Assembly (NCBI GenBank): GCA_963676515.1 | Contig: OY781061.1 | Span: forward strand, 505,520-537,519 | Reading direction: 5' to 3' | DNA length: 32,000 nucleotides | From: Candidatus Cloacimonadota bacterium | GTDB taxonomy: Bacteria > Cloacimonadota > Cloacimonadia > G963667145 | Shown: positions 1 to 16,447 of the stretch, in pieces | Layout: the number at the start of each line of letters is the position of its first letter | Numbering within the stretch: the first letter of the stretch is position 1 | The notes under the pieces: model-generated | The model's input: the letters and a program-made list of their open reading frames with translations, nothing else | Databases searched by the model: none | What the model was told of the DNA's origin: nothing | Translations under genes and position numbers: made by a program

Positions 1-278
1 TTCTCAATTTTGCTGTCCAATCCAACATCTTCGGCTCTTTTTTGCACAATATCCAGCATCGCTTTTTGCAAATCAAGAGCAAAAACTTTGCCCCTATCAC
101 CAACCATTTTAGCCAGTGGCAAGGTGAAATAACCAGGTCCACAACCAATTTCCAAAACTTTGTCGCCACTTCGCACATAAGAAGCAAACATCTTTTTCGG
201 GTTGTGAACTAACTTGCGAATTTTGCTTAACAAGAATCCAGATTTTTCTACTGGACACACCCTTTTTTCGTTTTTCAT
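1..278 (-). CDS. Class I SAM-dependent methyltransferase (5' part of the gene, runs off the left edge)
   Basis: Reverse-strand translation from ATG at 278 gives MKNEKRCVQ...VLEIGCGPGYFTLPLAKMVGDRGKVFALDLQ..., with methyltransferase motif I (VLEIGCGPG). The start overlaps the stop of the upstream MMPL gene (TAATG). Confidence 0.85.
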   Translation of the reverse strand, partial: MKNEKRVCPVEKSGFLLSKIRKLVHNPKKMFASYVRSGDKVLEIGCGPGYFTLPLAKMVGDRGKVFALDLQKAMLDIVQKRAEDVGLDSKIE

Positions 279-2626
279 TATACTTTTCCTCTTTCAACCA
301 CTTTTTGGGGACCAAAGGGCTGGAGCATCCTGATCAAAACGGGAGTGATGAAAAAATCGGATAACAAGGCTGAGCTGATACCGATCATCGCTAAGATTCC
401 CATACTACGCAAAACTTCCGCCTGCGACACTAAGTACACGGAGTAGTTGAGGATCAGCACCAGAGATGTCATCACCAGAGCCACACCGATGGATGCAAAG
501 CAGTCCGAGGAAGCTCTTTTGTAGCTACCGGTCTTCTGATAATAGAGCTTATAGTGATTGATGAAGTGAATGGTATCGTCCACGGCAAGTCCCAGTACCA
601 TCGGCATAATCGTCACCGTGATCATATCCAGAGGTATATCCAGATAGCCCATCGCTCCACCTGCTAGCAGGGCTGGAGTAATGTTGGGAATCATCCCAAT
701 GAGTCCGATGCGGATACCACCAAAAGCGAGCATCAAAATTATCGCTATTATCACCAAAGCTAGCAAAAATGAGTAAATCTGTCCCCAAGTAACCCGCTCT
801 GCCATGGCGATCATCTTCGCCATCGTACCCACTTCTTGGATTTTGGCGGTAGGAAATAGCTCCGCCGCTTTCTTCTTAATCTTAGCAATATCTTTGTCCG
901 CTAAACCTGTATCCATTTCCGAGAGTTCCACCTGGATGCGGTAGCGGCGATAGTCGTAATCTATCCAGCGAGTTGCTTCCTTGCCTCCAGAGTTCTCATA
1001 GAGCAAAAGCTCTTGTGCTATTGCACTTTTTGTGTCTGGGATGCGAAATTCGCTTTCTTTATCATCAAAAAGCACTTTATTCAAATCTTTGAGGATTTTC
1101 ACGATGGAGGTAACTCTTTTGGTCAAGAGAGTCTCCGATTGGATGAACGAAACCAGTTTGTCCAACTTCCTCATATTCTCTGGCTCTTTCACAGATCCGT
1201 TTTCGGGAAATTCTATGATAATGTTGTAAGAGTTCAGCGACCCTATCTGCGATCTAGCAACTTTCATTATTCTTTTCACATAAGGAACTTCCGCTCCCAC
1301 AGTGTCTTCGGCATCAAAAGATATACGAAACAATGAAAAGCCAAAACAGCCCAGCAAAGTTATGAGGATGTAGAAAAAGATTATTTTTTTGCTGTTACCA
1401 AATATCCAATCGCTAAGTTGCCTTAGCCAACCAGTTGCCCACCGCAGATGTGCTACCGTCTCTGCCAAATTTGCTTGCTTGTCTTTACCAAAAGAGAAGA
1501 GAATCGGTGTAAGGCTCAGCACCAAAAGAAAGCTGACCAAGACGATGGCAGCCGAGGTCAAGCCTATCCATTGCAAGATTGGCGAGGAGATAAAAATGAA
1601 AGAGCAAAGTGCCAAAACCGTGGTCAACGCCGTGAAGAGAATAGGCCAGCCCGTTTCTTTTAGTGCATAATAAACGGACTCTTTGCGTTTACCTGTTTCG
1701 GCAAATTCAGTCTTAAAAAAGTTGAAGAAGTGGATGTTGTAACCCACCGCCACAGCAAGTCCCAAGAAAATAGGCATCGTTACCACCGTAGGGTCGAAAG
1801 TTAGCCCCAAATGCCCTTGCAACCCAAAAACCAGCATCAGTCCGAAGACGATAGTCAAAAAGGGAACGAGCATCCCACGCAAAGAGCGAAATGCGAACAA
1901 AAGAATAATGAAAACTACCAAGAAAGAGAACTTCATCACTCGGGGAACTTCCGATGCAAAGAAGTCAGTTTTCCCATACATTACCACTGGTATACCCGTA
2001 GCTTTGGGGTTCAGCTGAGCGTAGGCTGGATTTCGGGATATATCTAGCACCGCCTTGCCTATGTGCAAAGAAGCGTCGTCATCCTCTTTGTCATACCTGA
2101 GTAGTCGCAAGATTATCCATGCTTCTTTACTGTCTGGGCTTATCAGTTGCCCTTTTATTAGCTCTTTGGAAAGAGCCTTAGTGCGTAACTCTTCCAGAGC
2201 TTGCTTGTCCGTAGGAATCTCCTCGGGTATCAGATCCTCTATCACCATACCCCAGTCTGTGCCTTGGCTAAACTCCAATGCGGTGATGCTCAAAACATCA
2301 TCGGCATAAGGGACTTTGTCTTCTAGCTCATATCCCATTTGTCTTATTAACTGTAAATTCTCTTGCGTGAAAACATCGTCACAGCTGATATGCACAGCCG
2401 CCATCTCCGTATTGCCAAAAATCGCCTCCATCTGGTTTTGATCGACGATAGTTTTATCCTCATCACCAAACCAGTTGTCTTCGTCCGAAGATTTCTTTAG
2501 GTGTGGCAAGCCAAAAGCCGTGACCACCAAAAGAGCCAGCAAGCAAAAAAGATACACCCATCTGCGTTTTACGATCCAGTTACCATAGCGGTAAAACCAA
2601 CTATTTATCTTGAGCAAATCTAACAT
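278..2626 (-). CDS. RND superfamily / MMPL-family transporter (782 aa)
   Basis: Long ORF with two blocks of TM helices and large loops; motifs such as LGLAVAVGYNIHFFNFF and LGLAVDDTIHFINHY, typical of predicted RND exporters. Confidence 0.9.
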   Translation of the reverse strand: MLDLLKINSWFYRYGNWIVKRRWVYLFCLLALLVVTAFGLPHLKKSSDEDNWFGDEDKTIVDQNQMEAIFGNTEMAAVHISCDDVFTQENLQLIRQMGYELEDKVPYADDVLSITALEFSQGTDWGMVIEDLIPEEIPTDKQALEELRTKALSKELIKGQLISPDSKEAWIILRLLRYDKEDDDASLHIGKAVLDISRNPAYAQLNPKATGIPVVMYGKTDFFASEVPRVMKFSFLVVFIILLFAFRSLRGMLVPFLTIVFGLMLVFGLQGHLGLTFDPTVVTMPIFLGLAVAVGYNIHFFNFFKTEFAETGKRKESVYYALKETGWPILFTALTTVLALCSFIFISSPILQWIGLTSAAIVLVSFLLVLSLTPILFSFGKDKQANLAETVAHLRWATGWLRQLSDWIFGNSKKIIFFYILITLLGCFGFSLFRISFDAEDTVGAEVPYVKRIMKVARSQIGSLNSYNIIIEFPENGSVKEPENMRKLDKLVSFIQSETLLTKRVTSIVKILKDLNKVLFDDKESEFRIPDTKSAIAQELLLYENSGGKEATRWIDYDYRRYRIQVELSEMDTGLADKDIAKIKKKAAELFPTAKIQEVGTMAKMIAMAERVTWGQIYSFLLALVIIAIILMLAFGGIRIGLIGMIPNITPALLAGGAMGYLDIPLDMITVTIMPMVLGLAVDDTIHFINHYKLYYQKTGSYKRASSDCFASIGVALVMTSLVLILNYSVYLVSQAEVLRSMGILAMIGISSALLSDFFITPVLIRMLQPFGPQKVVERGKV

Positions 2627-2641
2627 TTTATCTCCTATTCT

Positions 2642-3796
2642 TTAAAAAGAGTATTCCGCTTTACACCACGCCATGGAGTTATCGGAAAATTTACCAAAAT
2701 TGCCTTGCTGGTCGCCGTCGTAATAGTCGTAACCTAGCAAAATGTGCAGCCCTTGACTGCAATCGTAGTCGCCACTAAATTTACAAAAAATATCTTGCCG
2801 AGCAAGGCTATTCACCGCTTGAGCAGTAAATTCTAACTGCTGACGAAAAACTTTCTTCTTGAGCGTGAGGGTCAGCAAGCTCTCCGACTCATCCCTTTGC
2901 ACATCGACAGAGTAGTCGCAAACCAAATCGGCTGTTAGCTGAGCTGTAATAGTCCAGTCGTTCCCCGGATAGCAGTCTATCCCCAGCAATCCATCCAGCC
3001 ACGGCTTCTCTACCGTTCCTCCAGCAAAAAACTTCCGCTGGTAATAAGCAGACTCCAGACGATACACAAAAGAGCCTTGTGCTGCGGAAGCTTCCACGCC
3101 TACATAGCCAGTTCGCTTGTAGTCTATCACCAAGTCACCTGCCGAGAAACTTTGCACAGGCAACCAGAAATAGTAGCCACTCACTGCAAAATCAACCGCT
3201 CCCAAGTTTTTACCCAACCTGCCTGCTATTTGGGCAGATTCTAGCGTCTTCTCGGGCAAATCGTGCTCCACACCCTTATAACCAATAACATTCCACAAAG
3301 AGTCCGCCAATGGGTACTCTGCTCTGGTCATGTACGGCAGATAGATGATGTCGAGGTCAAAATAATCGGGAGAGTAGCTGAACTTGCATGCATCCACCGC
3401 TAGGCGACTGTCTTGCAAATCTTGGCTGAGTCCCAGCGAAAAGTCTTGCGAGCAGATAATGTCCGTGATACGCAGTCCGTCGGCTTTCCCCCAAGCGATG
3501 ATCTGGCGACCAATCCTCACATCCCAAGAGTCGGCAAAGTAATCGAAATAAGCTTCCTTGAGTTCAAAACTGCTCTGGTCTGTATTATTATCACGCATCG
3601 CCTTCAAGCTAGAAAAGAAGTAGGTGCTTTGCTTGTCTTGGCTCAGTTCCAGCAAAAGCCAGTTCTTATCCAGCAAACTTTGCTGCTCGCCTTGACTCTG
3701 CCAGCCGTGATGCGAAGCAACTTTACCTGCCACATCTAGGGCAAAAATTTGCCAGCAAAAAAAAGTGAGCATTAATAGAAAAAGTTTTTTCATCAA
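2642..3796 (-). CDS. Outer-membrane beta-barrel protein (DUF1302/porin-like) with signal peptide
   Basis: Signal peptide MKKLFLLMLTFFCWQIFA; alternating aromatic/polar strands; SWDVRIGRQIIAWGKADGLRITDI motif; C-terminal ...YSF. Start overlaps the stop of the upstream gene (3793-3796). Confidence 0.65.
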   Translation of the reverse strand: MMKKLFLLMLTFFCWQIFALDVAGKVASHHGWQSQGEQQSLLDKNWLLLELSQDKQSTYFFSSLKAMRDNNTDQSSFELKEAYFDYFADSWDVRIGRQIIAWGKADGLRITDIICSQDFSLGLSQDLQDSRLAVDACKFSYSPDYFDLDIIYLPYMTRAEYPLADSLWNVIGYKGVEHDLPEKTLESAQIAGRLGKNLGAVDFAVSGYYFWLPVQSFSAGDLVIDYKRTGYVGVEASAAQGSFVYRLESAYYQRKFFAGGTVEKPWLDGLLGIDCYPGNDWTITAQLTADLVCDYSVDVQRDESESLLTLTLKKKVFRQQLEFTAQAVNSLARQDIFCKFSGDYDCSQGLHILLGYDYYDGDQQGNFGKFSDNSMAWCKAEYSF

Positions 3797-4557
3797 AACT
3801 TACCTCTTTTAAGATTTGCAACTTTGAAAATTCTATCAGACACCTCTTGGTTATATTTCACCGATTGTATTTCCAGCAATGTCGTGTGTTTCTCCTGCTC
3901 ATTGTCCATAAAGCGAGAAAACGCTGTCCAGATACCGTCGATTTTTTGGAAATTACTGGCTGTCATCCTCTTCAAAAATCTACCTCTTTTATCGTAAAAC
4001 TCACCTTTTACCACCAGCAAATAATCTTTACTCACCCACTTCACCACTTTGGAGTACTGGTACCCTTCCTCTTTGGGAGTAGACTCCACCACCCAGCAAT
4101 CCGTGTCAGCAAACTTCTCCTCTTGCAGAAGTTTATGCGTATCTTCCTCTGGCTCTCTTTGTCCCATATCGTCATAGGTAAAATCTGTCCCCATAAAGTA
4201 GTCGCTCGTGCTAGAAGAAGCTATCCGCCTTACTTTCCGCAATGCTGGCATATATAGCCATTTGTCGTCATCTTTCGTAGCGTCATCGTACGACCAGTTC
4301 AAAAAAGCTGTCCCCGCAACATCGGCAGGTTGCAAAAACACAAACAGCGATTTCTCATCTTGCCCAAAATCTTTACGAATCATCTTCGTCTGCCTCTCCC
4401 TTGTTCTGCCTTGTCTATTGGTCAGCACCATCTTACTTTCGGAAACCATCGTCTTCCCATCGTCTCTTGCGTCCACTTGCTCCATTATCTCCAATCCCGT
4501 GATCGAAAACAGGCTACTCCCAACCGCTAAAACTATAAATACAAATAAACTTCTCAT
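3793..4557 (-). CDS. Outer membrane lipoprotein-sorting protein (LolA-like family)
   Basis: Signal peptide, then FVFLQPADVAGTAFLNWSYDDATKDDDKWLYMPALRKVRRI...FMGTDFTYDDM, characteristic of LolA-like sorting proteins found next to MMPL exporters. Confidence 0.8.
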   Translation of the reverse strand: MRSLFVFIVLAVGSSLFSITGLEIMEQVDARDDGKTMVSESKMVLTNRQGRTRERQTKMIRKDFGQDEKSLFVFLQPADVAGTAFLNWSYDDATKDDDKWLYMPALRKVRRIASSSTSDYFMGTDFTYDDMGQREPEEDTHKLLQEEKFADTDCWVVESTPKEEGYQYSKVVKWVSKDYLLVVKGEFYDKRGRFLKRMTASNFQKIDGIWTAFSRFMDNEQEKHTTLLEIQSVKYNQEVSDRIFKVANLKRGKF

Positions 4558-4581
4558 TTTAAAACCGCCTTTAAATATTTT

Positions 4582-4608
4582 TGAACACTGTTTACTGAAC
4601 AGCGTTCA
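4582..4608. promoter_or_regulatory. Inverted-repeat operator candidate (TetR-like) upstream of the LolA-like/porin/MMPL operon
   Basis: TGAACACTGTT-TACTG-AACAGCGTTCA: 11-bp arms with one mismatch. Can also be read as two 13-mers, TGAACACTGTTTA and TGAACAGCGTTCA, 14 nt apart. It ends about 25 nt upstream of the start codon at 4557. Confidence 0.5.
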
Positions 4609-4734
4609 TTGTCAAGGAGCAAAATGTTTTTTTGCTCCTTTCGCTTGCAACGACCAGACTGTCGCCCTTGGCTAGACGGTTTCGTCTTCTGTCAGATGAC
4701 TGGTTTACTAAATTTTCTCTCCTGACGGATGGTC

Positions 4735-4770
4735 TTACTTTTCCCTTTGGCTGACCAAAGCGAAAAGTAA
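4735..4770. repeat. Strong hairpin in intergenic repeat mosaic
   Basis: TTACTTTTC-c-CTTTGG-CTGA-CCAAAG-c-GAAAAGTAA; 15 paired bases with a single C/C mismatch. Confidence 0.75.
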
Positions 4771-4964
4771 CAAAAGGTAAAATCAAAATACCAAATCAGT
4801 AAGCTAAATTCTAAACCTTCTTTACACGCTGAAAGGCTTGTGCTAGAAATCACAACTGTTTAATAGAGGTGATATAGCACATCGCTCTTCAGCGTAAACT
4901 CAGGGCGGCTAACGAATTTAACGCTTCCTGCTTTATGTATTTATTAGCCCAACCCTTCCTTGGG

Positions 4965-4982
4965 TTCCCGCTTCCGCGGGAA
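4965..4982. repeat. Short palindromic element (dRS3-like TTCCCGC-TTCC-GCGGGAA), copy 1
   Basis: Perfect 7-bp inverted repeat with TTCC loop; the flanks are shared with copy 2 (aaccc-tccttgg-ttcccgc...). Confidence 0.75.
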
Positions 4983-5253
4983 TCCATTCTCTCACACTAT
5001 GCTAAAAACTACCACCAGACACTGTTTCCACTCAGCACGAGCTTTTTGTAGCCACCACCTGCCACAAGAAACCACCCAATAAAAACTTTAAGCAACTAGC
5101 ATACAATTACTTACGCCTTGCGGAGCTACGCTGGCGGCGACGAGCTATATCACCAAAAAGTGACAGATGTGATTCATAGCTCAAGACTGACAGCGTGCGA
5201 GGCGAGGCTTAGTAATTTTGCTAGGAGCTTAGGTTTTTTGACTTTTTCTTTCC

Positions 5254-5289
5254 TTCTACTTCTTTTTGGTCTGTCAAAAAGAAATAGAA
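5254..5289. repeat. Hairpin in intergenic repeat mosaic, second occurrence
   Basis: TTCTACTTCTTTTTG / CAAAAAGAAATAGAA, 15-bp stem with one mismatch. Confidence 0.65.
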
Positions 5290-5423
5290 AACCCTGCGTT
5301 AGCAGAGCCAACTAAATAAATAACCGACAGTGTCCGAAATAAAGTATGGCAGTCAATTAATTAACACATATACACTCCCAAGCTGGAGCTTGGGAGCGAG
5401 AAAAAACGCCAACCCATCCTTGG

Positions 5424-5443
5424 ATTCCCGCTTCCGCGGGAAT
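5424..5443. repeat. Short palindromic element ATTCCCGC-TTCC-GCGGGAAT, copy 2
   Basis: Perfect 8-bp inverted repeat; flanks match copy 1. Confidence 0.75.
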
Positions 5444-5796
5444 GAGGCGGATAAGGTGACTAAAGGGTTGGGTGATAACTCAAAGCCTGTGGTAAGCAGA
5501 GTCAGTGCTGGTGGATACTCAAAACTGGCAGTGGACGAAAGCAAACGCTTGTGAAGACACATAATTGTCTGTGGCACACGCCCGAGAGCTTCGCTGGCGT
5601 CGAGAGAGAATGCTGAGTAAGTCATTCAAGCCGAGGTTCGTAAACTTGTTTAAACGAATGAGCTAGTGGCTGTGCGACTTGGCTTAGGTCTCTTCTTTAG
5701 GCTGGCTTTAAAAGACTTTAAGCCTGAGTTACAGCCACCGTGAAGGTAGTTTTGCAAGTTAGAATCGAGGTTTATGACTTTGATTTTTTTTTGGCA

Positions 5797-5833
5797 TTAC
5801 CTTTCTTTTTTATCACTAAAAGAAGAAAGGTAA
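5797..5833. repeat. Hairpin in intergenic repeat mosaic, third occurrence
   Basis: TTACCTTTCTT...AAGAAAGGTAA inverted repeat. Confidence 0.6.
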
Positions 5834-5884
5834 CATCCTGTGATAGCAAAAGTTAACGCCTTTCCAGCATCGTGTCAATGAATG

Positions 5885-5904
5885 GATTCCCGCTTCCGCT
5901 CAGG
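5885..5904. repeat. Degenerate palindromic element (ATTCCCGCTTCCGCT...), copy 3
   Basis: Left arm matches copies 1 and 2 exactly; the right arm is degenerate. Confidence 0.5.
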
Positions 5905-6085
5905 ATGAGGATGGTGGTAACTCAAGACTGGTGGTAAATAGAAGCAAGGGCTAGTGGACAGTTTTCACCACAAGTGGCAAAGCCTAATTGAAAAGATAAA
6001 ATTATTGTCACACATAGTAAAAATGAATAAAAAAAGCCGCCCTTTGTTTAAAAAAGGACGGCTCAATTACAAATCTAAATAAGTA

Positions 6086-7372
6086 TTACATGAAGAACTT
6101 GCCGATGAAAATCAAGGCAACGATGTAAGTAACAACACTAACTTCTTTAGCTCTACCTGAGCAAAGTTTCAATGCTGTGTAAGAGATGATACCAAAAGCA
6201 ATACCCTCAGAGATAGAGTAAGTAAGTGGCATGATAATCATAGCCAAGAAAGCTGGAAGACCTTCGGTAAAATCTGCGAAATCCACTTTCAAAATCGGAG
6301 TAAGCATAAAAAGACCCACAACGATAAGAACAGGAGCTGTAGCAGCACCAGGCACCATTGTAATCAGTGGAGAGATGAAAAGAGAAAGCAAGAACAGACC
6401 AGAGATAACCAAAGCGGTAAGACCAGTACGACCACCCTCTTCTACACCAGCGGCTGACTCTACATAAGTAGTAACAGTACAAGTTCCAAGTAGTGCACCA
6501 ACTGTAGTACCTACAGCATCAGCAAAGAGAGCTTTCTTCACGCCTGGCAATTTGCCATCAGAATCAAGCATATTAGCTTTAGAAGCCACACCAACCAAAG
6601 TACCCACTGTATCAAACATATCTACGAACAAGAATGTGAACAACACGGTAGCCATATCAAGACTAAAAACATTGCTAAAATCAAGTTTGAAAAAGATAGG
6701 AGCAAGGCTAGCAGGAGCAGAGAAAATGCCATTAAATTTGGCAGCACCCAAAATAAGAGCCAAAACAGTAGAAGAAAGAATCCCTATCATCAAAGCACCT
6801 TTGACTTTTTTGTGATGCAATACGCCAATCACCAAAACACCAAACACGCAGATCAAAGGGTTGACTGAAAGCATATCTCCCAGTCCCAGCAATACAGCAG
6901 GATTGTCAACGACAATAGAAGCTCCTTGCAAACCGATGAAAGCGATGAAAAGCCCGATACCAGCAGAGATAGCGTATTTCAAGTTAATCGGAATACTATT
7001 GACAATCGCCTCACGCACATTGAGGAAAGTCAAGATCAAGAAGATCACACCTTCCAAAAAAACTGCTGTAAGAGCAAACTCCCAAGAGTAACCCATACCC
7101 AAAACCACTGTAAAAGCAAAAAAGGCGTTCAGCCCCATACCTGGTGCAAGACCAAAAGGCATGTTTGCATACAAAGCCATCACCAAAGTAGCTATAGCCG
7201 AAGACAAAGCTGTCGCAGTGATAAGCGCCCCAAAAGGCATACCTGTTTTTGACAAGATAATGGGATTCACAATAAGGATGTAACCCATAGTCAAAAAAGT
7301 GGTGATACCAGCAAGGATTTCTGTTTTTACAGTCGTTCCATGCTCACTAAGTTTAAAGAATTTTTCGAACAT
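6086..7372 (-). CDS. NCS2-family guanine/hypoxanthine permease (AzgA/PbuG-like)
   Basis: MFEKFFKLSEHGTTVKTEILAGITTFLTMGYILIVNPIILSKTGMP...GLAPGMGLNAFFAFTVVLGMG. Start chosen at 7372 because AGGAGGAAG lies directly upstream; the supplied ORF extends to 7408. Confidence 0.93.
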   Translation of the reverse strand: MFEKFFKLSEHGTTVKTEILAGITTFLTMGYILIVNPIILSKTGMPFGALITATALSSAIATLVMALYANMPFGLAPGMGLNAFFAFTVVLGMGYSWEFALTAVFLEGVIFLILTFLNVREAIVNSIPINLKYAISAGIGLFIAFIGLQGASIVVDNPAVLLGLGDMLSVNPLICVFGVLVIGVLHHKKVKGALMIGILSSTVLALILGAAKFNGIFSAPASLAPIFFKLDFSNVFSLDMATVLFTFLFVDMFDTVGTLVGVASKANMLDSDGKLPGVKKALFADAVGTTVGALLGTCTVTTYVESAAGVEEGGRTGLTALVISGLFLLSLFISPLITMVPGAATAPVLIVVGLFMLTPILKVDFADFTEGLPAFLAMIIMPLTYSISEGIAFGIISYTALKLCSGRAKEVSVVTYIVALIFIGKFFM

Positions 7373-8544: not shown

Positions 8545-9954
8545 ATGAATTATTCCACACTCGCACAATGGTGCAACGAGCCTCTACCTCAGTTCCTGAA
8601 ATTCAAGTCGATGGAAAGAGCCGCAGACCAATACCGCATCTCGTTCACCAAGAGTTATCTTTTCTTGCAAATAAACCTCTCGGGAAAAGACAACTTCTGC
8701 TTTTTTACCCAAGACGATACGCTGGACTTCACGCCTGCTTTTTCGGGGGTTATGAGCCTTTTCCAGAACGCTGTCCTCTCGGAAATAAGCCCACTTGGCA
8801 ACGACAGAATTTTAAGCTTCTTATTCCACAAAAGGTCTATTTACGGCGAAAATCTCCTGCTAAAAATTGTAGTGGAACTTATCCCGGGCAAACTGAATAT
8901 TATCTTCTTGGAAGAGAACAAGATTTTGCAAGCCAAAAAGATTTACTCTTTTGCCGACAATCCAGAGCGGCAAATACTCTCTGGGCAAAAATACCTCTTG
9001 CCTGTAAACAAAAACAAGCAAGAAATTTGCTACCGCCCTTTGCCGTGGCACGATCAAGACTACAGCTTCGAATCTGTAAACGACTATCTGGAGCATTTTT
9101 TTTACAACCACATCCACCTGCAAAGATTAGCTATTATCAAAAATAGAGAAGAGAATCAGCGTAAGAAAAAAATAGAGAAAGCTGAAACAAAACTCGCTCA
9201 TCTCAGGGCGACTTGGCAAGATTACAGCAAGACAGAATATTGGAAGATGGCTGGCGAACTGCTAAAATCGGCTTATCACACGATCACGCCAGGATTACAA
9301 GAGATCTCAATAGTAAACTACTGCGACCCTAAGATGCCCAAAATTATTATAAAACTAAAAAAAGAGCTCTCTCCAAGGCAAAATGTCGATCTCTACTTCA
9401 AAAAATATAAGAAAGGGATCAACGGGAAAAAAATCATCGAAAGTCGCATCAAAATGACAGAAGCCGAAATACAGAATCTGAAAAATCAGCCAGACTACAG
9501 TCAAGAAAAAGCAGAATACACGCCCAAAGCAAAACCTAATGAAAAAAAATCTCTGAAGCAGATCAAGATAAACGAAATTTTAAAAATCGTAATCGGCAGA
9601 AACGACGCCGAGAACAACACCATTACCTGCAAACTAGCAGGAAAAACAGATTTATGGTTTCACACCAGAGCTATCAGAGGCTCTCATATCGTGATATTTA
9701 ACCCTTACAAAAAAGATGTTCCCCAAAAAATAATCGAAATTGCAGCGGGTCTGGCTGCCTACTATTCCAAAGCCAAACATTCGGGGAAAGTAGCCGTAGA
9801 CTACACTCACATCCGTTATGTGTGGAAGATAAGAAAGGGTCGTTTAGGACAAGTAAACTACAAAAATCAAAAAACTGTGTTTACCAAACCAAGATCGATG
9901 CGGGAAGTAAAAAAAGAGTTAAACGAATTTATAAAAGATACTAGCAAAGGCTAG
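8545..9954 (+). CDS. NFACT family protein (RqcH/Rqc2-like RNA-binding)
   Basis: C-terminal NFACT-R signature KTDLWFHTRAIRGSHIVIFNPYKK...AAGLAAYYSKAKHSGKVAVDYTHIRYVWKIRKGRLGQVNYKNQKTVFTKP, preceded by a coiled coil. Likely start MNYSTLAQW at 8545; the ORF as given begins at 8479. Confidence 0.85.
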   Translation: MNYSTLAQWCNEPLPQFLKFKSMERAADQYRISFTKSYLFLQINLSGKDNFCFFTQDDTLDFTPAFSGVMSLFQNAVLSEISPLGNDRILSFLFHKRSIYGENLLLKIVVELIPGKLNIIFLEENKILQAKKIYSFADNPERQILSGQKYLLPVNKNKQEICYRPLPWHDQDYSFESVNDYLEHFFYNHIHLQRLAIIKNREENQRKKKIEKAETKLAHLRATWQDYSKTEYWKMAGELLKSAYHTITPGLQEISIVNYCDPKMPKIIIKLKKELSPRQNVDLYFKKYKKGINGKKIIESRIKMTEAEIQNLKNQPDYSQEKAEYTPKAKPNEKKSLKQIKINEILKIVIGRNDAENNTITCKLAGKTDLWFHTRAIRGSHIVIFNPYKKDVPQKIIEIAAGLAAYYSKAKHSGKVAVDYTHIRYVWKIRKGRLGQVNYKNQKTVFTKPRSMREVKKELNEFIKDTSKG

Positions 9955-10604
9955 TGAATCTCGATAACTATCCGCCTATTAAGGTCACGATTGGACTGAA
10001 TAGGTCTGCCGCTAGAGTCTTTATTGGGAGCTAAAGGCTTAATATAAGCGTACCCAGAAGCTTTCATCTTATCCGGCGATATTCCCTCGATGATAAAGTA
10101 ACGGACAATATTTGAGGCTCTACCCACAGACAACTCCCAGTTAGAAGGAAAGCGTCTCGTGTTTATCGGCACATCGTCTGTATGCCCCTCGATATCTATA
10201 TTAGGGTCGTAGTAATTAATTGCCTGAATGGAATTAGCTATCTTTTCTAAAATCCCAATATTCTTTTTGATAATAGTGGCTTCTCCCGAACGATAAAGAG
10301 CGTCTGACAAGATGTTTATCGCAATAGATGAACGATTAAGTCGTACAGAAACTATTCCCGCCATCCTTTCCTCTAGAAGCATAGAATCCAAATCTGTTTT
10401 CATCCGCGATAAAGGTGTAGAAAAATCATCTTCGTTAGCTTCTATCTCAGCACGATAACCTTCTTTGAACTCCTGCCACATACCAGAGTTCGTAGTAGAC
10501 ATAGAAACCAACAAAACAAAAAAACAAAGAAGAAGAGTAACCAAATCAGAGTAAGTAGTCAGCCAAGACTCATCAATAAGAGTCTTTTTTCTTTCGAACT
10601 TCAT
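9951..10604 (-). CDS. MotB-like stator protein with C-terminal OmpA/peptidoglycan-binding domain
   Basis: WLTTYSDLVTLLLCFFVLLVSMS (TM with conserved D), then NIDIEGHTDDVPINTRRFPSNWELSVGRASNIVRYFIIEGISPDKMKASGYAYIKP...NRDLNRRIVIEI. Confidence 0.93.
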   Translation of the reverse strand: MKFERKKTLIDESWLTTYSDLVTLLLCFFVLLVSMSTTNSGMWQEFKEGYRAEIEANEDDFSTPLSRMKTDLDSMLLEERMAGIVSVRLNRSSIAINILSDALYRSGEATIIKKNIGILEKIANSIQAINYYDPNIDIEGHTDDVPINTRRFPSNWELSVGRASNIVRYFIIEGISPDKMKASGYAYIKPLAPNKDSSGRPIQSNRDLNRRIVIEIH

Positions 10605-10632
10605 TTAATAACTCTCTTGCCACACTTGACAA

Positions 10633-11433
10633 TCAAAAATCGTCACCAACATTCATAGCATTTTCTCCATTATCCTCTTTGTCCACTAGCGAACGCAAAA
10701 AATCTTCCACATAAAAAGAAGATTTTTCTTGTATAATAAGGATAACACCTTCCAAAATAAGGTTTTTACGAAACATAACAGACATAGCTATATCTACAGA
10801 TTTATTCGCTCCTGGAATAAAAAAAACTCTAGCTAAAATAAGTCCATAAAAAGTGGTAATCAGAGCCACCGCCATCGCAGGACCAATCTTGGATGGATCG
10901 TCTAATTGACTAAGCAAGATAACCAAACCTATCAAAGTACCCAACATACCAAAAGCTGGCGAAGAACCACCTAAACTTTTCAAAATCTCAGAAGTTTCTT
11001 CTGCGTTTTGATTCTCTCTGGATATTTCGTTCTGGATAAACTCTTTGGACTCTTCCAGAGAGTATCCTGTGGACAAAATAGAAAAAACATATTTATCAAA
11101 AGGGTCGGTAACTTCGGAATATATCTCATCATAAGCTTTCTTGCCACCACTTTGCACTCTTTCTGCCCAATCTTTGATACGACTAATTTCCTGAGTATAA
11201 CTTTTACTATCCATAGGGTACTTAAACATTACCCTGAAAGCAGCGAGAATTGCTTTGCTTGTCCTTACTACTCCACGACCTACAAATTCACTAATGAGCG
11301 TACCACCTACCACGATCAAAATACTGGGGTAGTTGATAAACACTTGCCAATTTGAGGTAGCACTCAATATAGATATTGCAATTACAACCCAAACGAGAAT
11401 AAAAGAGATAAAAGAACTTACAGAACCTATCAT
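10633..11433 (-). CDS. MotA-like stator protein (MotA/TolQ/ExbB family)
   Basis: WQVFINYPSILIVVGGTL near the N-terminus; GGSSPAFGMLGTLIGLVILLSQLDDPSKIGPAMAVALITTFYGLILARVFFIP is diagnostic of MotA. Confidence 0.93.
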   Translation of the reverse strand: MIGSVSSFISFILVWVVIAISILSATSNWQVFINYPSILIVVGGTLISEFVGRGVVRTSKAILAAFRVMFKYPMDSKSYTQEISRIKDWAERVQSGGKKAYDEIYSEVTDPFDKYVFSILSTGYSLEESKEFIQNEISRENQNAEETSEILKSLGGSSPAFGMLGTLIGLVILLSQLDDPSKIGPAMAVALITTFYGLILARVFFIPGANKSVDIAMSVMFRKNLILEGVILIIQEKSSFYVEDFLRSLVDKEDNGENAMNVGDDF

Positions 11434-11436
11434 AAA

Positions 11437-12093
11437 TTAGTACCCTATTTTATTTAACATTTGCCTCACACCTTGGATACTATTATTTAAACGCAAAGAG
11501 TTTGTCCAATTTTTACGAGCCAATGATAAATTACCCAACATATAATAAACACTTCCTTTCAAAGCATAAGCTCTTGCGGTAGGTTTTTGATTTATAGAAC
11601 TGTTAACTTGCTGCAAAGCTTTTTCATAACTACCTGCATAAAAGCTATTTTGAGCTTGTACCAAAAAATCACTTTCTGAAGGACTTGAGCTTGCATTTTC
11701 ATCTTGAGAAGAAGGCGTTTCAACGCTAGCATAATCGTCTAGAGATTCACCTGTAGATCCAGATTTTGAAACATCTATCTGAACATTGTTATCTCTAGGG
11801 TCAAGGCTCAAAATCACTTCTGAAGATTTGTTTCGATACTTGATCAGAATCTCATTTTTTTGAGGACGAAGAGTGTTCTGTTGGATAATCGTAGTGCTTT
11901 GCTCTGTATCCTGATCCACTACTCCTACTCCCCTATCTATACTTTTACCTGCTACTGTTCCAGAAGAGCTAACCATAGCCTCTCTTTCCGAAACTGTACT
12001 TTCCTCTACTCCCCTTTTAAGAACATACTTATTCCAAAGGGAACATCCAGAAAACAAGAAAAGACTAGAAATTATAACTAAAATTAATCTCAT
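11437..12093 (-). CDS. TPR-containing lipoprotein
   Basis: Lipobox MRLILVIISSLFLFSGC; TPR-like region YAGSYEKALQQVNSSINQKPTARAYALKGSVYYMLGNLSLARKNWTNSLRLN. Overlaps the upstream gene by 29 nt. Confidence 0.75.
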   Translation of the reverse strand: MRLILVIISSLFLFSGCSLWNKYVLKRGVEESTVSEREAMVSSSGTVAGKSIDRGVGVVDQDTEQSTTIIQQNTLRPQKNEILIKYRNKSSEVILSLDPRDNNVQIDVSKSGSTGESLDDYASVETPSSQDENASSSPSESDFLVQAQNSFYAGSYEKALQQVNSSINQKPTARAYALKGSVYYMLGNLSLARKNWTNSLRLNNSIQGVRQMLNKIGY

Positions 12094-13216
12094 ACTTCAG
12101 CGCCCCAAACTCAATATAACTACTTTCATTTTGTTTCAATGTCCTACCAAACGGTATAACTCCCAGACCAAGACCTACTTCTATATCTTCGGTAAGATCG
12201 GATGTAGCACCAATCATGGTGGTCAAGAAGCTCCCAGAATAATTAATAGGAACAAAAAACTCACCTTTCATATATGGCTTAAGCCAATAATTGTCTTTTA
12301 AAGATTTAAGCTGACTTTCTTTTTTATAATATTTCGTCATCACTCCACCACCTGCGTAACCCAAGAAGGCTGTCGGTAAAGTGGAAAAACCCTCAATATT
12401 GTTTTCCAATGTCAGCTGGCAATTCACGATAGACAAGCCTGCCGAGAGAGTCATCATAACCTCTGCAAAAGAGAAGTTAGATTTTTGCTTACGCACAGCT
12501 CCTAGACGATAATCGATCATCCTTGCAGAGTTGCTACTACTTCCCCCATAATTACTGTCAAAGATAGACACTCCGTCTCTTTTGTAGTCGTTGACTGTAA
12601 AGAAGCCAACATTAAAATCAAGAGCGTACTGCTTTGGAATATCTATATCACGGTCGTTGTTAGGTCCTTCGATATAAGCTTTCGACCAAATAATCTCTCC
12701 TGTTTTGTTGCTTACCATCTTTAAGGAGAGCAAAACATCTCCGTAGGCACTACGAGTGCAATTCCCCTCGATGAAAGCGTCTATGTTGTACTTCTCTCCC
12801 ATATGTCGGAGCTCATCAAAAGATCTGGCAGAATTAACATAACTAAAAGAGGTATCGGTAATTTTTACTCTGGCGAGATTGAACTCTGGCACTACCACCA
12901 AATCTATCGCCTCGTTGTTTAAAAGGACTTGCTCTAGTTTCGACTTCACAAAACGCACCATCCCGATAGAAATAGCGTCCCGATCAGCTTTGACACGATA
13001 GACTGCAACCCTCTTGACCCCTAAAGGGAAATTGAGGACAGACTCCTGCACTCTGAGCATAATGCGAGAGATATTGCGAACTTCCGATCTGTCACTACGA
13101 GGATAAGAGCCCACAGCACTCATGTTCGAAAATTGATTATACTCAAACTGAGCAAAAAGAGAAGAAAAACAAACAGTTAAAACAAAAACAAATAAAACTT
13201 TCTTAATACTCTTCAT
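12065..13216 (-). CDS. Exported protein: CsgG/FlgT-like N-terminal domain plus probable C-terminal outer-membrane beta-barrel
   Basis: Signal peptide MKSIKKVLFVFVLTVCFSSLFAQ; KRVAVYRVKADRDAISIGMVRFVKSKLEQVLLNNEAIDLVVV...YNIDAFIEGNCTRSAYGDVLLSLKMVSNKTGEIIWSKAY; C-terminal strands ending ...YEINFSYNF. Start at 13216 is preferred over 13249. Confidence 0.6.
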   Translation of the reverse strand: MKSIKKVLFVFVLTVCFSSLFAQFEYNQFSNMSAVGSYPRSDRSEVRNISRIMLRVQESVLNFPLGVKRVAVYRVKADRDAISIGMVRFVKSKLEQVLLNNEAIDLVVVPEFNLARVKITDTSFSYVNSARSFDELRHMGEKYNIDAFIEGNCTRSAYGDVLLSLKMVSNKTGEIIWSKAYIEGPNNDRDIDIPKQYALDFNVGFFTVNDYKRDGVSIFDSNYGGSSSNSARMIDYRLGAVRKQKSNFSFAEVMMTLSAGLSIVNCQLTLENNIEGFSTLPTAFLGYAGGGVMTKYYKKESQLKSLKDNYWLKPYMKGEFFVPINYSGSFLTTMIGATSDLTEDIEVGLGLGVIPFGRTLKQNESSYIEFGALKYEINFSYNF

Positions 13217-15182
13217 TTGCTGCTCTACCTTCACTTTGGTTTCCACCAATATTACGCCCGCCAGCTTCTCTAATCTCTTTTCTGATTACGGACATCATTT
13301 TTCTTCTGGATCTCTCTATATCATCTGCTTTTAATTTGTTTTCATTTATTCTCAGTTCTGACCTAATAATCTCTCTCATCCGCTCGGGAACATTAGACAA
13401 AATAGAGTTAATCCTCACCTCGTCTACTCCAACCAACGCTGCAGACAATAATTCTCTGTCCATTTTTTGGATAGCTCTGACCATAATATCTTCTTCCAAG
13501 TTGCCTAGGTCATCAAAAGCTATAAAGTATTTCAAGACTTTCTCTGCTGTCTCCACATCCGCTTTCGTGATGTCGTCGATAAACTCTTTTTGCTGAGATG
13601 TAGTGAGAGTATCCAATATCTCCAGCATCTTGCCAGCACCATCGGAAGAAACATACTCCATTCCTCGCATCTTGAGTGCCTCTTTTGCCAAACGACTAGA
13701 GACCTCTTTATACACAGAAGTCGGGATTTTGCCCAGTTTGCCCATATTTCCCATCACCGCAGACCGCTGCTCCAATGGATAAGACGCCAGTAGTTCCGAA
13801 GCTTTCTCTGCAGACACTTGAGTAATGACCAGTGCTTGCACGCCCTCAGGTTCGCCTTTGAGAGCTTGTCTTATCTGTTCTACGGACATTGCGTTCAAGA
13901 AACCAAACATCCCTGTGTCGTCCTTGCCATCGTCAGTGACGGTCAAAGAACTCCAAGCATTTTTAAAATTTTGCAACGCTTCCAACTTAGTTTTCGTGTC
14001 CAAATCTTCCATATTGCGAATATTCCAAGAAAGCAACTTGAAATCGTCGTGCGAAACTTTACCTTCCAAAAGGTCAAGCAAATTTTCATCTATAGCTTTG
14101 ATTAGCTTGGTAGCTTTATCTATACCTTCGTCTCCACCACTATCTACCCAACCTTGCAAGACAATGCCCACATTTTTCGCTTCTGCCAAAAATTTATTAA
14201 TCGCAAAAGAACGAAGTTTTTTGTATTCTGCAATCTCCATTTTTTCGGGCTCAGAAGTTCGATTGACTTTCCGAAGCTCCCGCATCTCTTGCATCAAACT
14301 ATCAAACTGCTCATCATATCGAGGGAAGTTTACTTTCGGTTGTACCATATTGGAGTCTTGCACTCCAGAGTTCTTTTTGGATATGAAGAAAAAAGCTACC
14401 AAAAATCCAATTAGCAACAACAAGCCTATCAATCCTGCGATTAAATAAGTTAAGAAGTCTGAGTTATCTTCGTCTGGAAGAGGCTCGTCTTGGACTTGCT
14501 CATCCTCCATCTCTTTTCTTCTTTTTTCTTCTTCTGCTAACCTAGCAGCCTCTTCTTCGGCTTTTTTAGCCTCTTCTATCATTTTTTGCTTTTGATTAGT
14601 AAACTTCACCAAAGTCACATTGACAATGTCGCCTCGGTAAATATCTATCCCAGCCTTCATCTTTACCAGTTCATCTATAAAAGAGACATCTTCTGGCGTA
14701 TAAGCAGATGCGTCCAACATTACATTTACAACTAGGTTGTCTATCTCATAGTCCGATGCTCCGCCCATGCCTGTAGGCACCCGACTCTCTGTAATGCTAG
14801 TCTGACTAGGCATCGAGATATCTCCTAGTCCTTCTAGATCGTCCACAAACTCGTTGACGAATCTTCCCTCGGTACCAGGCATTACCAAATTCCCAAGACC
14901 GATACCAGAACTTACAGCTTGTGATGTTTGCAACATCCCCATACCCAAACCCATACCTTGCCTAGCTTTCAGGTTGACAGCAATATCAACCTCGTAAGTC
15001 TCTTTTTCGCAATAAGATGCCAAAGTGGATGAAAGTCTTATTTCATAAGCTCTAGATATCTTGTCCGCGTACATTATGACGCTGAGAGGCTCACTACTCC
15101 CCTGCTCAAAAGAGTACTGAGCTTGTAATAGACTAAAAGCCCAAAAAACAAGTAAAAATAATCTAAATTTTCTTGTTTGCAT
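13203..15182 (-). CDS. FliF(C-terminal)-FliG-like fusion protein (659 aa): signal peptide, FliF RBM3/beta-collar-like periplasmic part, TM, coiled coil, FliG-like cytoplasmic domains
   Basis: IDNLVVNVMLDASAYTPEDVSFIDELVKMKAGIDIYRGDIVNVTLVKF resembles the FliF segment before TM2; TM LTYLIAGLIGLLLLIGFLVAFFF. Then FliG-like ASELLASYPLEQRSAVMGNMGKLGKIPTSVYKEVSSRLAKEAL...GAGKMLEILDTLTTSQQKEFIDDITKADVETAEKVLKYFIAFDDLGNLEEDIMVRAIQKMDRELLSAALVGVDEVRINSILSNVPERMREIIRSEL. Confidence 0.8.
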   Translation of the reverse strand: MQTRKFRLFLLVFWAFSLLQAQYSFEQGSSEPLSVIMYADKISRAYEIRLSSTLASYCEKETYEVDIAVNLKARQGMGLGMGMLQTSQAVSSGIGLGNLVMPGTEGRFVNEFVDDLEGLGDISMPSQTSITESRVPTGMGGASDYEIDNLVVNVMLDASAYTPEDVSFIDELVKMKAGIDIYRGDIVNVTLVKFTNQKQKMIEEAKKAEEEAARLAEEEKRRKEMEDEQVQDEPLPDEDNSDFLTYLIAGLIGLLLLIGFLVAFFFISKKNSGVQDSNMVQPKVNFPRYDEQFDSLMQEMRELRKVNRTSEPEKMEIAEYKKLRSFAINKFLAEAKNVGIVLQGWVDSGGDEGIDKATKLIKAIDENLLDLLEGKVSHDDFKLLSWNIRNMEDLDTKTKLEALQNFKNAWSSLTVTDDGKDDTGMFGFLNAMSVEQIRQALKGEPEGVQALVITQVSAEKASELLASYPLEQRSAVMGNMGKLGKIPTSVYKEVSSRLAKEALKMRGMEYVSSDGAGKMLEILDTLTTSQQKEFIDDITKADVETAEKVLKYFIAFDDLGNLEEDIMVRAIQKMDRELLSAALVGVDEVRINSILSNVPERMREIIRSELRINENKLKADDIERSRRKMMSVIRKEIREAGGRNIGGNQSEGRAANEEY

Positions 15183-15457
15183 TTTTATTCCCGATATTAA
15201 ACAATGTGATACCTTTTTTTACTTCTTATCATCAAACGGAATTATAAATAGTATATGTGTCAAACCTTTTTTTCCTTTTTAAGATTTTCTTGCCCCTCTT
15301 TGTGTACTTAAATTCATACAAGCCTGTGTCTTAATTTCATTTTTTATTTTTTTTAAAATTTTATAAATTTTTATACTTTATTGCATAATTACAAGTTAAG
15401 TGCTTTTGCCTTTGGTTTAATTCTTGACTTATATCTGTTCTTTTTTAGAAACGGACT

Positions 15458-16447
15458 ATGAAAAAAAAATTACTTTTTTTACTCTTTTTTTGTTCTCTTT
15501 TTTTGATTTTTGTTTATAAACAACATTTGTCTTCAAAAAAAATCAGCAAAACAAGAATTGCTTTAGGAACTTTTATCGAGATCAGTCTGGAAGGAAATCC
15601 AAAGAGGATAGATAAATACATCGACACTTGCTTTGAGATTATCGAAGATTTACAACACAAACTGGGCTACCAAAATCCCAAAAGCGATCTAAGCTTTATA
15701 AATGGTTGCCAAAAAGCTCCTATCACTCCAGAGATTTTTTCTCTTTTAGATTTTTGCCAAGAGTTTTATCTTCTTTCAGAAAAAAGATTTGACCCAACCG
15801 TCGGAGCACTAATAGATCTTTGGGATTTTACTAAAAAAAGAGTGCCTACTCCTGCTAAGATAAAGCAAGCACAAAAAATTTGCGGGTTAGAAAAAGTCAA
15901 ATACGACACCCTTATGCTCATTAAACCTAAAAACCTGAAAATTCACCTGGGAGGAGTCGCCAAAGGGTTTATAATGCAAAAAGTTTGCGACTATCTACAA
16001 GAAAAGAAAATCAAAAGTGGATACATAAATGCTGGAGGAGATATTTCTATTTTTGGGAACGAATACAAGCAAATAGGAATTGCTCATCCTAGGCAAAAAG
16101 AAAAACTTATCGATACTATCCAAATAAAGACAGGTGCGGTAGTAACCTCGGGAGATTACGAGAGGTTTTTTGTAAAAAACGGTAAAAGGTATCATCACAT
16201 CATCGATCCTATCAGCGGATACCCCAGCGAAAACTGCGTCAGCGTTACGGTGGTGGATTCTAGCATCCTCAGAGCCGATGCCCTGGCTACCGCCTATTTC
16301 TTGATGCCCGTGGAAGAAGCTATCCTTATGGCTAATCGACGCAATCGACGCAAGAGTGCCGTTTTGATCTACTACCTAGACCACGAAGGAGCGTTGCAAA
16401 GCAGAGAGTCTTGCGAATTTGCTCAGTACAGGATGAAAAAAAGATGA
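15458..16447 (+). CDS. apbE: FAD:protein FMN transferase (ApbE family)
   Basis: LGTFIEISLEG; DPTVGALIDLWDF; VHLGGVAKGF-type motif (IHLGGVAKGFIMQKV); GYINAGGDISIFG; AVVTSGDYERFF...YHHIIDPISGYPSENCVSVTVVDSSILRADALATAYF. Confidence 0.95.
   Translation: MKKKLLFLLFFCSLFLIFVYKQHLSSKKISKTRIALGTFIEISLEGNPKRIDKYIDTCFEIIEDLQHKLGYQNPKSDLSFINGCQKAPITPEIFSLLDFCQEFYLLSEKRFDPTVGALIDLWDFTKKRVPTPAKIKQAQKICGLEKVKYDTLMLIKPKNLKIHLGGVAKGFIMQKVCDYLQEKKIKSGYINAGGDISIFGNEYKQIGIAHPRQKEKLIDTIQIKTGAVVTSGDYERFFVKNGKRYHHIIDPISGYPSENCVSVTVVDSSILRADALATAYFLMPVEEAILMANRRNRRKSAVLIYYLDHEGALQSRESCEFAQYRMKKR

Follow-up and report, generated by a model that had tools for sequence, protein, structure and literature searches.

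To our knowledge, the stator-rotor pair formed by MotAB and FliG has been described only within the flagellum, and the other 5:2 ion-driven motors that we know of (ExbBD, TolQR, GldLM, AglRQS and ZorAB) all use different partners. Tol-Pal (TolQRA, TolB, Pal and CpoB) is an envelope-spanning machine with no part in motility, and GldLM, from the type IX secretion and gliding apparatus of Bacteroidota, is a non-flagellar ion-driven rotary stator of the Fibrobacteres-Chlorobi-Bacteroidetes (FCB) group with outer-membrane-proximal partners. Proteins of the FlgT and PflA/PflB types position stators around the rotor, and in published structures of the MS ring the ring-building motifs RBM1 and RBM2 and the beta-collar enclose the export gate and keep the rod in place. 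Here, we analysed a 32-kb window (the whole stretch of 32,000 nucleotides from a Candidatus Cloacimonadota contig) in which a candidate operon of five minus-strand genes, at positions 9951–15182, is predicted to encode a FliF/FliG fusion together with MotA, MotB and two outer-membrane partners. We propose, with a probability of about 60%, that the five genes form one operon and that their products build a self-contained rotor-stator complex, ion-driven and non-flagellar, that spans the cell envelope. What would be new here is that the torque generator of the flagellum stands apart from it and is linked to partners in the outer membrane. No prior description of such a module was found in the literature searched, in which subscription journals were thinly covered and an earlier mention is possible; Cavalier-Smith (2006) had described MotB-like OmpA proteins in non-flagellate FCB bacteria, explicitly without MotA.

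The five-gene locus and its FliF/FliG fusion

The list of open reading frames (ORFs) places the five genes, read 5' to 3' on the minus strand, in the order FliF/FliG fusion, barrel protein, tetratricopeptide repeat (TPR) lipoprotein, MotA and MotB. Gene 1 (13203–15182, 659 aa) encodes the proposed rotor, a FliF(RBM3)-TM-FliG(N,M,C) fusion in which TM denotes a transmembrane helix; gene 2 (12065–13249, 394 aa counted from the first TTG) is predicted to encode an outer-membrane barrel with a periplasmic domain; gene 3 (11437–12093, 218 aa) encodes a TPR lipoprotein, gene 4 (10633–11433, 266 aa) a MotA/PomA-type stator A subunit and gene 5 (9951–10604, 217 aa) a MotB/PomB-type stator B subunit. 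Genes 1 and 2 overlap (13203 against 13216–13249), as do genes 2 and 3, by 29 nt (12065 against 12093), while 3 nt separate genes 3 and 4 (11437/11433) and 28 nt separate genes 4 and 5 (10633/10604). The ORF list agrees exactly with the positions and the overlapping or near-abutting junctions of the original prediction, a model's reading of the letters and ORFs of the window, and all five ORFs match called, unnamed genes exactly on one contig of 1,581,858 bp. Gene 2 is called in the database from 13234 (389 aa), and conservation among homologues begins at the ATG at 13216 ('MKSIKK...'), which from this pattern is likely the true start.

The proposed rotor assignment comes from gene 1. In Pfam, its product matched FliG_C (E = 1.6e-12, 48.1 bits) and FliG_M (E = 1.1e-9, 38.8 bits), both above the cut-offs, and YscJ_FliF_C with E = 3.3e-5 and 24.8 bits (up to 26.9) against a cut-off of 23.8. 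An exhaustive HMMER search returned 2,155 proteins of the family at E ≤ 1e-3. Compared with the PDB, the family profile matched FliG (1lkv) with E = 5.5e-37, and FliG_C, FliG_M and FliG_N were detected in 40/40, 40/40 and 36/40 members, respectively. The protein was modeled with AlphaFold from 40 diverse relatives, giving a mean predicted local distance difference test (pLDDT) of 80 with 365 residues at 90 or above. The top Foldseek match of this model in the PDB was a full-length FliG (8wiw_3, E = 3e-10), and since about 320 columns align to FliG chains of 310–331 aa, none of the N, M and C domains is missing. After FliG came about 17 FliF RBM3/S-ring structures (E = 2e-3 to 2e-2, probability 1.00), including 8z5v_A, 7cg7_A, 6sd1_A and 8z4g_1, with TM-scores on the target of 0.5–0.59. 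When the periplasmic domain was searched as a profile of its own, the two best PDB matches were both FliF (E = 0.048 and 0.12), aligned co-linearly in two pieces to FliF residues 233–295 and 420–454 ('...RGDSITVRNISF'); the pieces correspond to the RBM3 halves that flank the beta-collar, immediately ahead of the second TM helix of FliF. The YscJ_FliF_C model likewise matched 17 of 21 periplasmic domains of the family (E ≤ 1). The claim of a FliF/FliG-like fusion at 13203–15182 thus withstood both profile and structure comparison.

The domain layout of gene 1, all on the minus strand, is as follows in the model. Residues 1–23 (15114–15182; MQTRKFRLFLLVFWAFSLLQAQ) are hydrophobic, are modeled as a helix over residues 2–23 and form a putative cleavable signal peptide or first TM helix, as in FliF. 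Residues 33–192 (14607–15086) form the periplasmic RBM domain, an RBM3 homologue that ends in a near-invariant RGD; its predicted topology is alpha-beta-[disordered insert 77–142]-beta-alpha-beta, with a conserved LPG motif in the insert, and P102 (129/131), G103 (128/131) and D185 (131/131) stand out in the family. A charged coil (197–228) precedes the predicted TM helix at residues 241–270 (14373–14462), and the all-helical cytoplasmic region (about 291–639) contains the FliG-like part at residues 312–639 (13266–14249), with ARM-like N, M and C domains and a torque helix bearing R601. Among the best 150 of the family's 50%-identity cluster representatives, 130 are full length (about 600 aa); the fusion architecture with a hydrophobic, mid-protein TM segment is shared by 126 of these 130, and the N-terminal hydrophobic segment was found, under a strict threshold, in 65 of them.

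In gene 1, RBM1 and RBM2 (Pfam YscJ_FliF, PF01514) were not matched, and the periplasmic part of about 170 residues corresponds to a single RBM. The beta-collar is absent, its place being taken by a Gly/Ser-rich loop of 60 residues (77–142; pLDDT below 50) in which only LPG is conserved. Of the FliM-binding EHPQ(R) motif only the glutamate, E444, is kept (115/131), the next three positions being variable, and the window protein reads E-P-E-G. In the torque helix, R601 aligns to the torque-helix arginine of Thermotoga maritima FliG, equivalent to R281 of Escherichia coli, and is R or K in 127/131 members. The FliG part moreover makes up the half of a 659-aa membrane protein that lies in the cytoplasm, whereas canonical FliG is soluble, has about 330 aa and is encoded alongside fliF, fliH, fliM and fliN, and the score of gene 1 against the FliG equivalog TIGR00207 was 84.3 bits, for a cut-off of 226.7. 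Judged from sequence and predicted structure, gene 1 is a FliF of which RBM3 alone is left, joined to a complete FliG. Without RBM1/2, beta-collar and FliM site it could not replace FliF or FliG in a flagellum, so that the operon would be a distinct entity whatever the rest of the genome holds. Engineered fusions of FliF to FliG in Salmonella and Vibrio are reported to form rings all the same, which makes a natural fusion of this kind mechanically plausible.

Stator subunits and outer-membrane partners

Gene 4 matched the Pfam family MotA_ExbB (80.7 bits, E = 1e-22), and among NCBIfam models it scored 137 bits with PomA, 131 with MotP and 106 with MotA, against 27.8 with TolQ and 14 with ExbB. 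None of the equivalog cut-offs was reached, either on the flagellar side (341 for PomA, 340 for MotA) or for TolQ (221) and ExbB (135). The protein has a MotA_ExbB channel domain and four TM helices, lies nearer to MotA/PomA than to ExbB/TolQ, and its channel prolines P159 and P207 are present in 45/45 orthologues. Gene 5 combines a TM helix carrying the channel aspartate with a plug (MotB_plug, 54.3 bits, E = 1e-14) and an OmpA-like peptidoglycan-binding domain (OmpA, 53.4 bits, E = 3.4e-14); its channel residue D20, within the motif W..TYSD[ML][IV]TLLL.FF, is kept in 45/45 orthologues. It too stays below the equivalog cut-off (MotD, 154 bits against 283), and of the module's proteins it is the best conserved across phyla, with 46–51% identity. 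A survey of MotAB proteins (mBio 2025) regards a plug combined with an OmpA-like domain as what sets flagellar-type stators apart from generic ones, and FCB phyla are not listed among the flagellar-type stators in its phylogeny. Genes 4 and 5 are therefore, as far as their sequences tell, a flagellar-type MotA and MotB, the invariant prolines and aspartate bearing out the assignment made in the original prediction. The original prediction spoke of a proton-driven motor; the best stator models are of the Na+ type (PomA, MotP and MotS), and the coupling ion may be H+ or Na+.

Both basic and acidic residues occur in the MotA loop of every clade. The positions that we take, by alignment to E. coli MotA and Vibrio PomA, to be equivalent to MotA R90 and E98 are approximate. 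A clade-wise co-variation between the charges of the MotA loop and those of the FliG helix was considered and set aside, as it comes down to one or two events in the phylogeny and has no value as proof.

Compared with the flagellar motor core, the module thus shares a homologous RBM3-type domain, a three-domain FliG with its torque arginine and the MotA prolines, as well as the MotB channel aspartate, plug and OmpA-like peptidoglycan anchor. It differs in that FliF is naturally fused to FliG and is devoid of RBM1, RBM2, beta-collar and HPQ; that export, rod, hook, filament, FliM/N and chemotaxis genes are not linked to it; that two dedicated outer-membrane proteins are; that it occurs in non-motile organisms; and that all its NCBIfam equivalog scores are far under the cut-offs.

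Gene 2 has no match in Pfam or NCBIfam. Its AlphaFold model, built from ten sequences, has a pLDDT of 72.6, the other four models ranging from 40 to 58. The model comprises a periplasmic alpha/beta domain at about residues 53–194 (12668–13093, minus strand) and a C-terminal 8-strand beta-barrel at about residues 206–393 (12071–12634, minus strand). Foldseek matched the N-terminal domain to LpoB (4q6l, TM-score on the target 0.72), TolB (E = 8e-6), GNA1162, PelC and FlgT (3w1e, E = 3e-4; also the LPHT ring structure 8z5n), and the barrel to OmpA, OmpW and OprG. A C-terminal phenylalanine, the usual signal for the beta-barrel assembly machinery (BAM), is found in 36/37 orthologues. Together with the modeled barrel, it suggests that gene 2 encodes an outer-membrane beta-barrel protein with the features of a BAM substrate. 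The original prediction had called this protein 'CsgG-like plus barrel'. The barrel stood up in the model and in the terminal Phe; the CsgG part did not, as the N-terminal domain has the TolB-N/LpoB/PelC/FlgT fold. CsgG was absent from the top 50 Foldseek matches and no CsgG Pfam domain was detected, so that 'CsgG-like' is to be taken as a rough description of the fold class only.

Gene 3 (11437–12093, minus strand) encodes a lipoprotein with a pair of TPRs at its C terminus and a long linker rich in Ser and Glu. Its lipobox, LFSGC, occupies residues 13–17; a cysteine following a hydrophobic N-terminal stretch is present in essentially all 45 orthologues, 26/45 of which satisfy a strict lipobox pattern. 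The TPR assignment comes from weak, sub-threshold matches to TPR_2, TPR_21 and TPR_1 at residues 146–205, in line with the TPR lipoprotein named at first reading. The description of genes 2 and 3 as exported outer-membrane components likewise agrees with the barrel and terminal Phe of the one and the lipoprotein cysteine of the other.

The nature of these partners brings to mind stator scaffolds such as the Vibrio FlgT H-ring with FlgO/FlgP, or PflA/PflB of Campylobacter, with which the module has in common an N-terminal domain of gene 2 similar to FlgT and the TPRs of gene 3. There is, on the other hand, no relation at the sequence level, gene 2 is itself an integral barrel in the model, and L/P rings and rod are lacking. 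The partners also resemble those of Tol-Pal, where an ion-driven 5:2 stator of the inner membrane likewise occurs with a TolB-N fold, an OmpA-like binder and a TPR protein. An alternative reading, which we hold to be unlikely while giving it more credit than the other rivals considered here, is an energised trans-envelope tether of the Tol-Pal or TonB kind, which does not rotate continuously: MotAB would dock on the FliG-like domain for activation or localisation, and force or conformational change would pass through gene 1 to genes 2 and 3 and serve outer-membrane integrity, constriction, or lipid and protein homeostasis. It is favored by TolB (E = 8e-6) and LpoB standing at the head of the Foldseek matches of gene 2, by the TPR protein recalling CpoB, by the OmpA/Pal-like peptidoglycan-binding domain that MotB brings, by the non-motile carriers, by the retention of the operon in strongly reduced genomes, as expected of envelope housekeeping, and by the fact that no output axle is encoded. 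However, the stator is of the MotA/PomA type (137 bits) and not of the TolQ (28) or ExbB (14) type, a MotB plug is present, which is specific to torque stators according to the MotAB survey, and a three-domain FliG with its torque-helix Arg and an RBM domain are features of a ring or rotor. The TolB matches, moreover, have a low TM-score (0.19) and concern the fold of the N-terminal domain only, and the module has neither TolA nor the TolB beta-propeller, its inner-membrane partner being FliF/FliG. GldLM offers a second non-flagellar comparison, from which the module differs in having no Pfam GldL or GldM match; in GldLM it is GldM that crosses the periplasm and rotates, with no FliG-like rotor.

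Distribution, selection and carriers

A scan of a genome collection, made with a 12-sequence alignment and a single peptide pattern, found the fusion family in Cloacimonadota, Fibrobacteria and Balneolaceae/Rhodothermia, the carriers including Gracilimonas tropica DSM 19535 (locus L014) and Balneola sp. EhC07; with one pattern, this taxonomic range is a lower bound. By tblastn and ORF calling, all five genes were recovered in identical order, with overlapping or abutting ends, at essentially all loci, about 50 across the three groups, and two further Cloacimonadota lineages carry the five-gene unit at 43% and 30% identity with different flanks. No flagellar gene adjoins the module in the flanks of the about 50 loci, and no sixth gene is co-conserved across phyla, only apbE recurring, within Cloacimonadota. 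In divergent members the fusion adjoins motAB in other orders (motA-motB-fusion in L056; fusion, small ORFs and motAB in L055), which suggests that the rotor-stator pairing is the core of the system and that the outer-membrane partners are clade-specific.

A further divergent fusion member, of 724 aa, lies at 1–6683 of locus L054 (GCA_043820105.1). Its flanking genes encode a 332-aa TPR protein, a 212-aa protein and a 945-aa TPR protein, with no barrel protein among them; motAB does not occur within 8 kb downstream, and the upstream side ends at the contig edge. This locus may represent a variant architecture of the system.

The ratio of non-synonymous to synonymous substitution rates (dN/dS) is 0.03–0.11 for all five genes relative to the nearest relative, at a dS of about 1, and the five genes are thus under strong purifying selection. 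The operon is also retained in genomes reduced to 1.55 Mb. Gene make-up, conservation across three phyla, purifying selection and retention of the ion-path and torque residues are all direct observations. They bear on the idea that the locus is what remains of an ancestral flagellum in decay, functionless and retained by accident. Descent of the FCB group from flagellated ancestors is held by some, and every equivalog cut-off is missed, as such a relic would have it. Against this stand the low dN/dS at a dS of about 1, the intact reading frames and the gene order identical across three phyla, the invariance of catalytic and channel residues, the persistence in 1.55-Mb reduced genomes and the co-conservation of two partner genes that are not flagellar; we therefore consider decay highly improbable. 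We hold a Zorya-like anti-phage defence built on a MotAB-type motor to be just as improbable. Gene 5 does match ZorB models in PADLOC (E = 6.5e-15), and the recruitment of MotAB relatives to defence has a precedent in ZorAB, likewise a MotAB-related 5:2 motor outside the flagellum. This match is nevertheless a generic MotB-ZorB similarity: PADLOC gave no match for genes 1–4, ZorA with its tail, the effectors ZorC and ZorD, and any nuclease, helicase or other effector domain are missing, the site is syntenic and chromosomal among housekeeping genes with no defence island, and vertical conservation across phyla with a low dN/dS is unlike defence systems.

The carriers are a small, mostly non-flagellated bacterial group. 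The genome of the window, GCA_963676515.1 ('piPlaFron1.Candidatus_Cloacimonadota_1.1'), has 1.58 Mb and 1,328 genes and belongs to clade II of the Cloacimonadota. The cultured G. tropica is non-motile and has 17 COG-N genes, and Balneolaceae are non-motile with the exception of Balneola vulgaris. One earlier survey reported flagellar systems in 5/46 Cloacimonadota genomes. Among 179 clade II metagenome-assembled genomes (MAGs), motA and motB are annotated in 73 and 71, respectively, and flhA, fliF, fliG and flagellin in 25–30; on the basis of KEGG, this corresponds to about 40% of clade II for motA/motB and about 15% for the flagellar core (PMC13082233, Table S8). In clade II, motAB is thus about 2.5 times commoner than the flagellar core genes, and the surplus is plausibly accounted for by the present module. 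The use of motA/motB or of KEGG orthologues for 'flagellar assembly' as evidence of motility may therefore mislead in these phyla, and if our proposal is right, motA, motB and fliG annotations in MAGs of Cloacimonadota, Fibrobacterota and Balneolales are not evidence of flagellar motility.

The window genome is a single-contig MAG, as are those of its closest relatives; they measure 1.54–1.59 Mb and are named piPlaFron1, piMetSpec1, piMetSpee1 and piPlaSpec1. These names look like Tree-of-Life sample identifiers of anaerobic ciliates (Plagiopyla, Metopus), which suggests that a reduced-genome Cloacimonadota lineage may live with ciliates; no paper on such a lineage was found.

Flagella do occur among the relatives of the carriers (5/46 Cloacimonadota, about 15% of clade II and B. 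vulgaris), and every recognisable domain of the module is flagellar. The five genes could on these grounds be ordinary or accessory flagellar genes, with a regulon elsewhere in the genome that draws on the operon for its stator and for a specialised rotor, or for a second set of motor parts. This reading is improbable in our view, as it is at odds with the loss of RBM1/RBM2, beta-collar and FliM-binding HPQ from gene 1, with the absence of an adjacent flagellar gene at about 50 loci, with the presence of the module in the non-motile G. tropica and with the excess of motAB over flagellar core genes in clade II. Within the window, none of the other 19 large ORFs encodes a flagellin, hook, rod, FliM/N or export-apparatus protein, as had been noted at the outset. 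Of the two possibilities then left side by side, a stand-alone envelope motor or a dispersed remnant of a flagellum, the former is favored by a gene order conserved across three phyla with unrelated flanks, by purifying selection and by the non-motile cultured carrier; the interpretation given in the original prediction is in this respect supported.

Proposed mechanism and further features of the window

In the self-contained rotor-stator complex that we propose, the gene 1 product would assemble into an inner-membrane ring by way of its periplasmic RBM3-like domain. With FliF and FliG in one chain, this ring would bear one FliG per subunit on its cytoplasmic face. Units of the MotA5B2 type, made of genes 4 and 5, would be anchored to the peptidoglycan through the OmpA-like domain of MotB and would conduct H+ or Na+ past the invariant Asp. 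Pushing on the C-terminal torque helix of FliG with its near-invariant Arg601, these stators would turn the ring relative to the wall, in a machine that has no export gate, rod, hook or filament and whose ring does without RBM1/2, beta-collar and the FliM-binding HPQ. Genes 2 and 3 would reach inward from the outer membrane and act either as a scaffold for stators and ring, as FlgT and PflA/B do, or as the receiver of the mechanical output. Our leading guesses for the use of the work are an envelope or outer-membrane maintenance similar to that of Tol-Pal and the movement of surface components.

Several points weigh against this proposal. The likeness to FliF is weak by sequence (E = 0.01–0.1 against the PDB, with Pfam barely past its cut-off), and the FliF identity draws in part on a predicted structure; the gene 2 model is likewise of moderate confidence. 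In the torque helix, the equivalent of D288 is mostly Ser (S608) and that of D289, E609, is acidic in only about 53% of members, the acidic residue otherwise lying two positions further; in favor of the proposal, every clade has an acidic residue at 609 or 611. That the FliG, PomA/MotA and MotB equivalog cut-offs are widely missed implies that these proteins have diverged from working flagellar parts. No component of the operon is readily recognised as its output, and gene 1 has only a small periplasmic part. The window in which flagellar genes were looked for covers 32 kb of a 1.58-Mb genome. Finally, it is from the gene content and conserved residues that we infer the ring, the MotA-FliG contact, the rotation and the function.

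If the proposal is correct, a flagellar torque generator works, and is selected for, in the absence of a flagellum. It would also provide a simpler model for the study of torque and ring assembly, with five genes and a fixed 1:1 ratio of FliF to FliG, and would bear on the old question of the evolutionary route by which a stator and a secretion-ring scaffold came together as the flagellar motor. The cultured G. tropica DSM 19535 makes these ideas testable. A further-reaching and more tentative idea, possible rather than probable, is that of a free-standing minimal motor, in which a FliF/FliG ring and MotAB are wired to the outer membrane, and which would be either a surviving sister lineage of the flagellar motor, from before or outside its joining with type III export and axial structures, or a streamlined derivative of it. 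In both cases it would define a sixth functional class of 5:2 ion-driven motor and the sole non-flagellar one with a FliG rotor. In the derivative version, FCB bacteria, including the ciliate-associated Cloacimonadota, would possess a new envelope engine for surface movement, outer-membrane remodelling or secretion.

At the ends of the candidate operon, a consensus scan found a terminator-like hairpin at 9940–9955 on the minus strand, directly after the motB stop codon. On the other side, gene 1 is separated from the divergently transcribed apbE by an A+T-rich intergenic region (15183–15457; the GC fraction is 0.315 in window 15001–16000), presumed to be the promoter region of the operon. The promoter scan was uninformative, with 14 sigma-70-like sites for 13.5 expected and none above chance within 15183–15457.

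The apbE gene, encoding an FMN transferase, adjoins the module in three Cloacimonadota lineages, at 15458–16447 in the window, 14144–15124 in locus L004 and 12602–13555 in locus L051. The flanks of these three lineages otherwise differ, and apbE follows the gene for RNase HII in two of them. ApbE matures the Na+-pumping Rnf and Nqr complexes; its adjacency could be a hint of Na+ coupling or a residue of synteny.

The rest of the window is ordinary chromosome, with genes for CysRS, ApbE, an NFACT/RqcH-like protein, a permease, an MMPL transporter trio, Fe-S ATPases and three tRNAs. The trio, at 278–4557 on the minus strand, consists of an MMPL/RND-like transporter (782 aa), a DUF1302-like protein (384 aa) and a LolA-like/DUF1329 protein (254 aa), and is conserved beside the module region in loci L001 and L002. 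It probably forms an export system for lipids or hydrophobic compounds that reaches the outer membrane. Between the LolA-like gene and the permease gene, about 1.5 kb (4560–6085) is devoid of any ORF of at least 100 aa. A 35-nt element with the palindromic core TTCCCGCTTCCGCGGGAA occurs there in three copies, at 4949, 5409 and 5883 with a 460/462-nt spacing, and the 460-nt units around it are otherwise poorly alike. In Rfam, no family reached the gathering score for the region 4560–6085, the only trace being a weak L20_leader-like match at 6022–6150 (24 bits, E = 0.045).

A 454-aa ORF at 21756–23120 has no Pfam or NCBIfam match and has syntenic counterparts of 455 aa in L001 and 469 aa in L002. 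Near the end of the window, at 29429–30280 and 30698–31549, two tandem genes encode 283-aa Bro-N domain proteins that are 97% identical over 281 residues; the pair looks like a recent duplication, in a genome that is otherwise reduced, and is possibly of mobile-element or phage origin.

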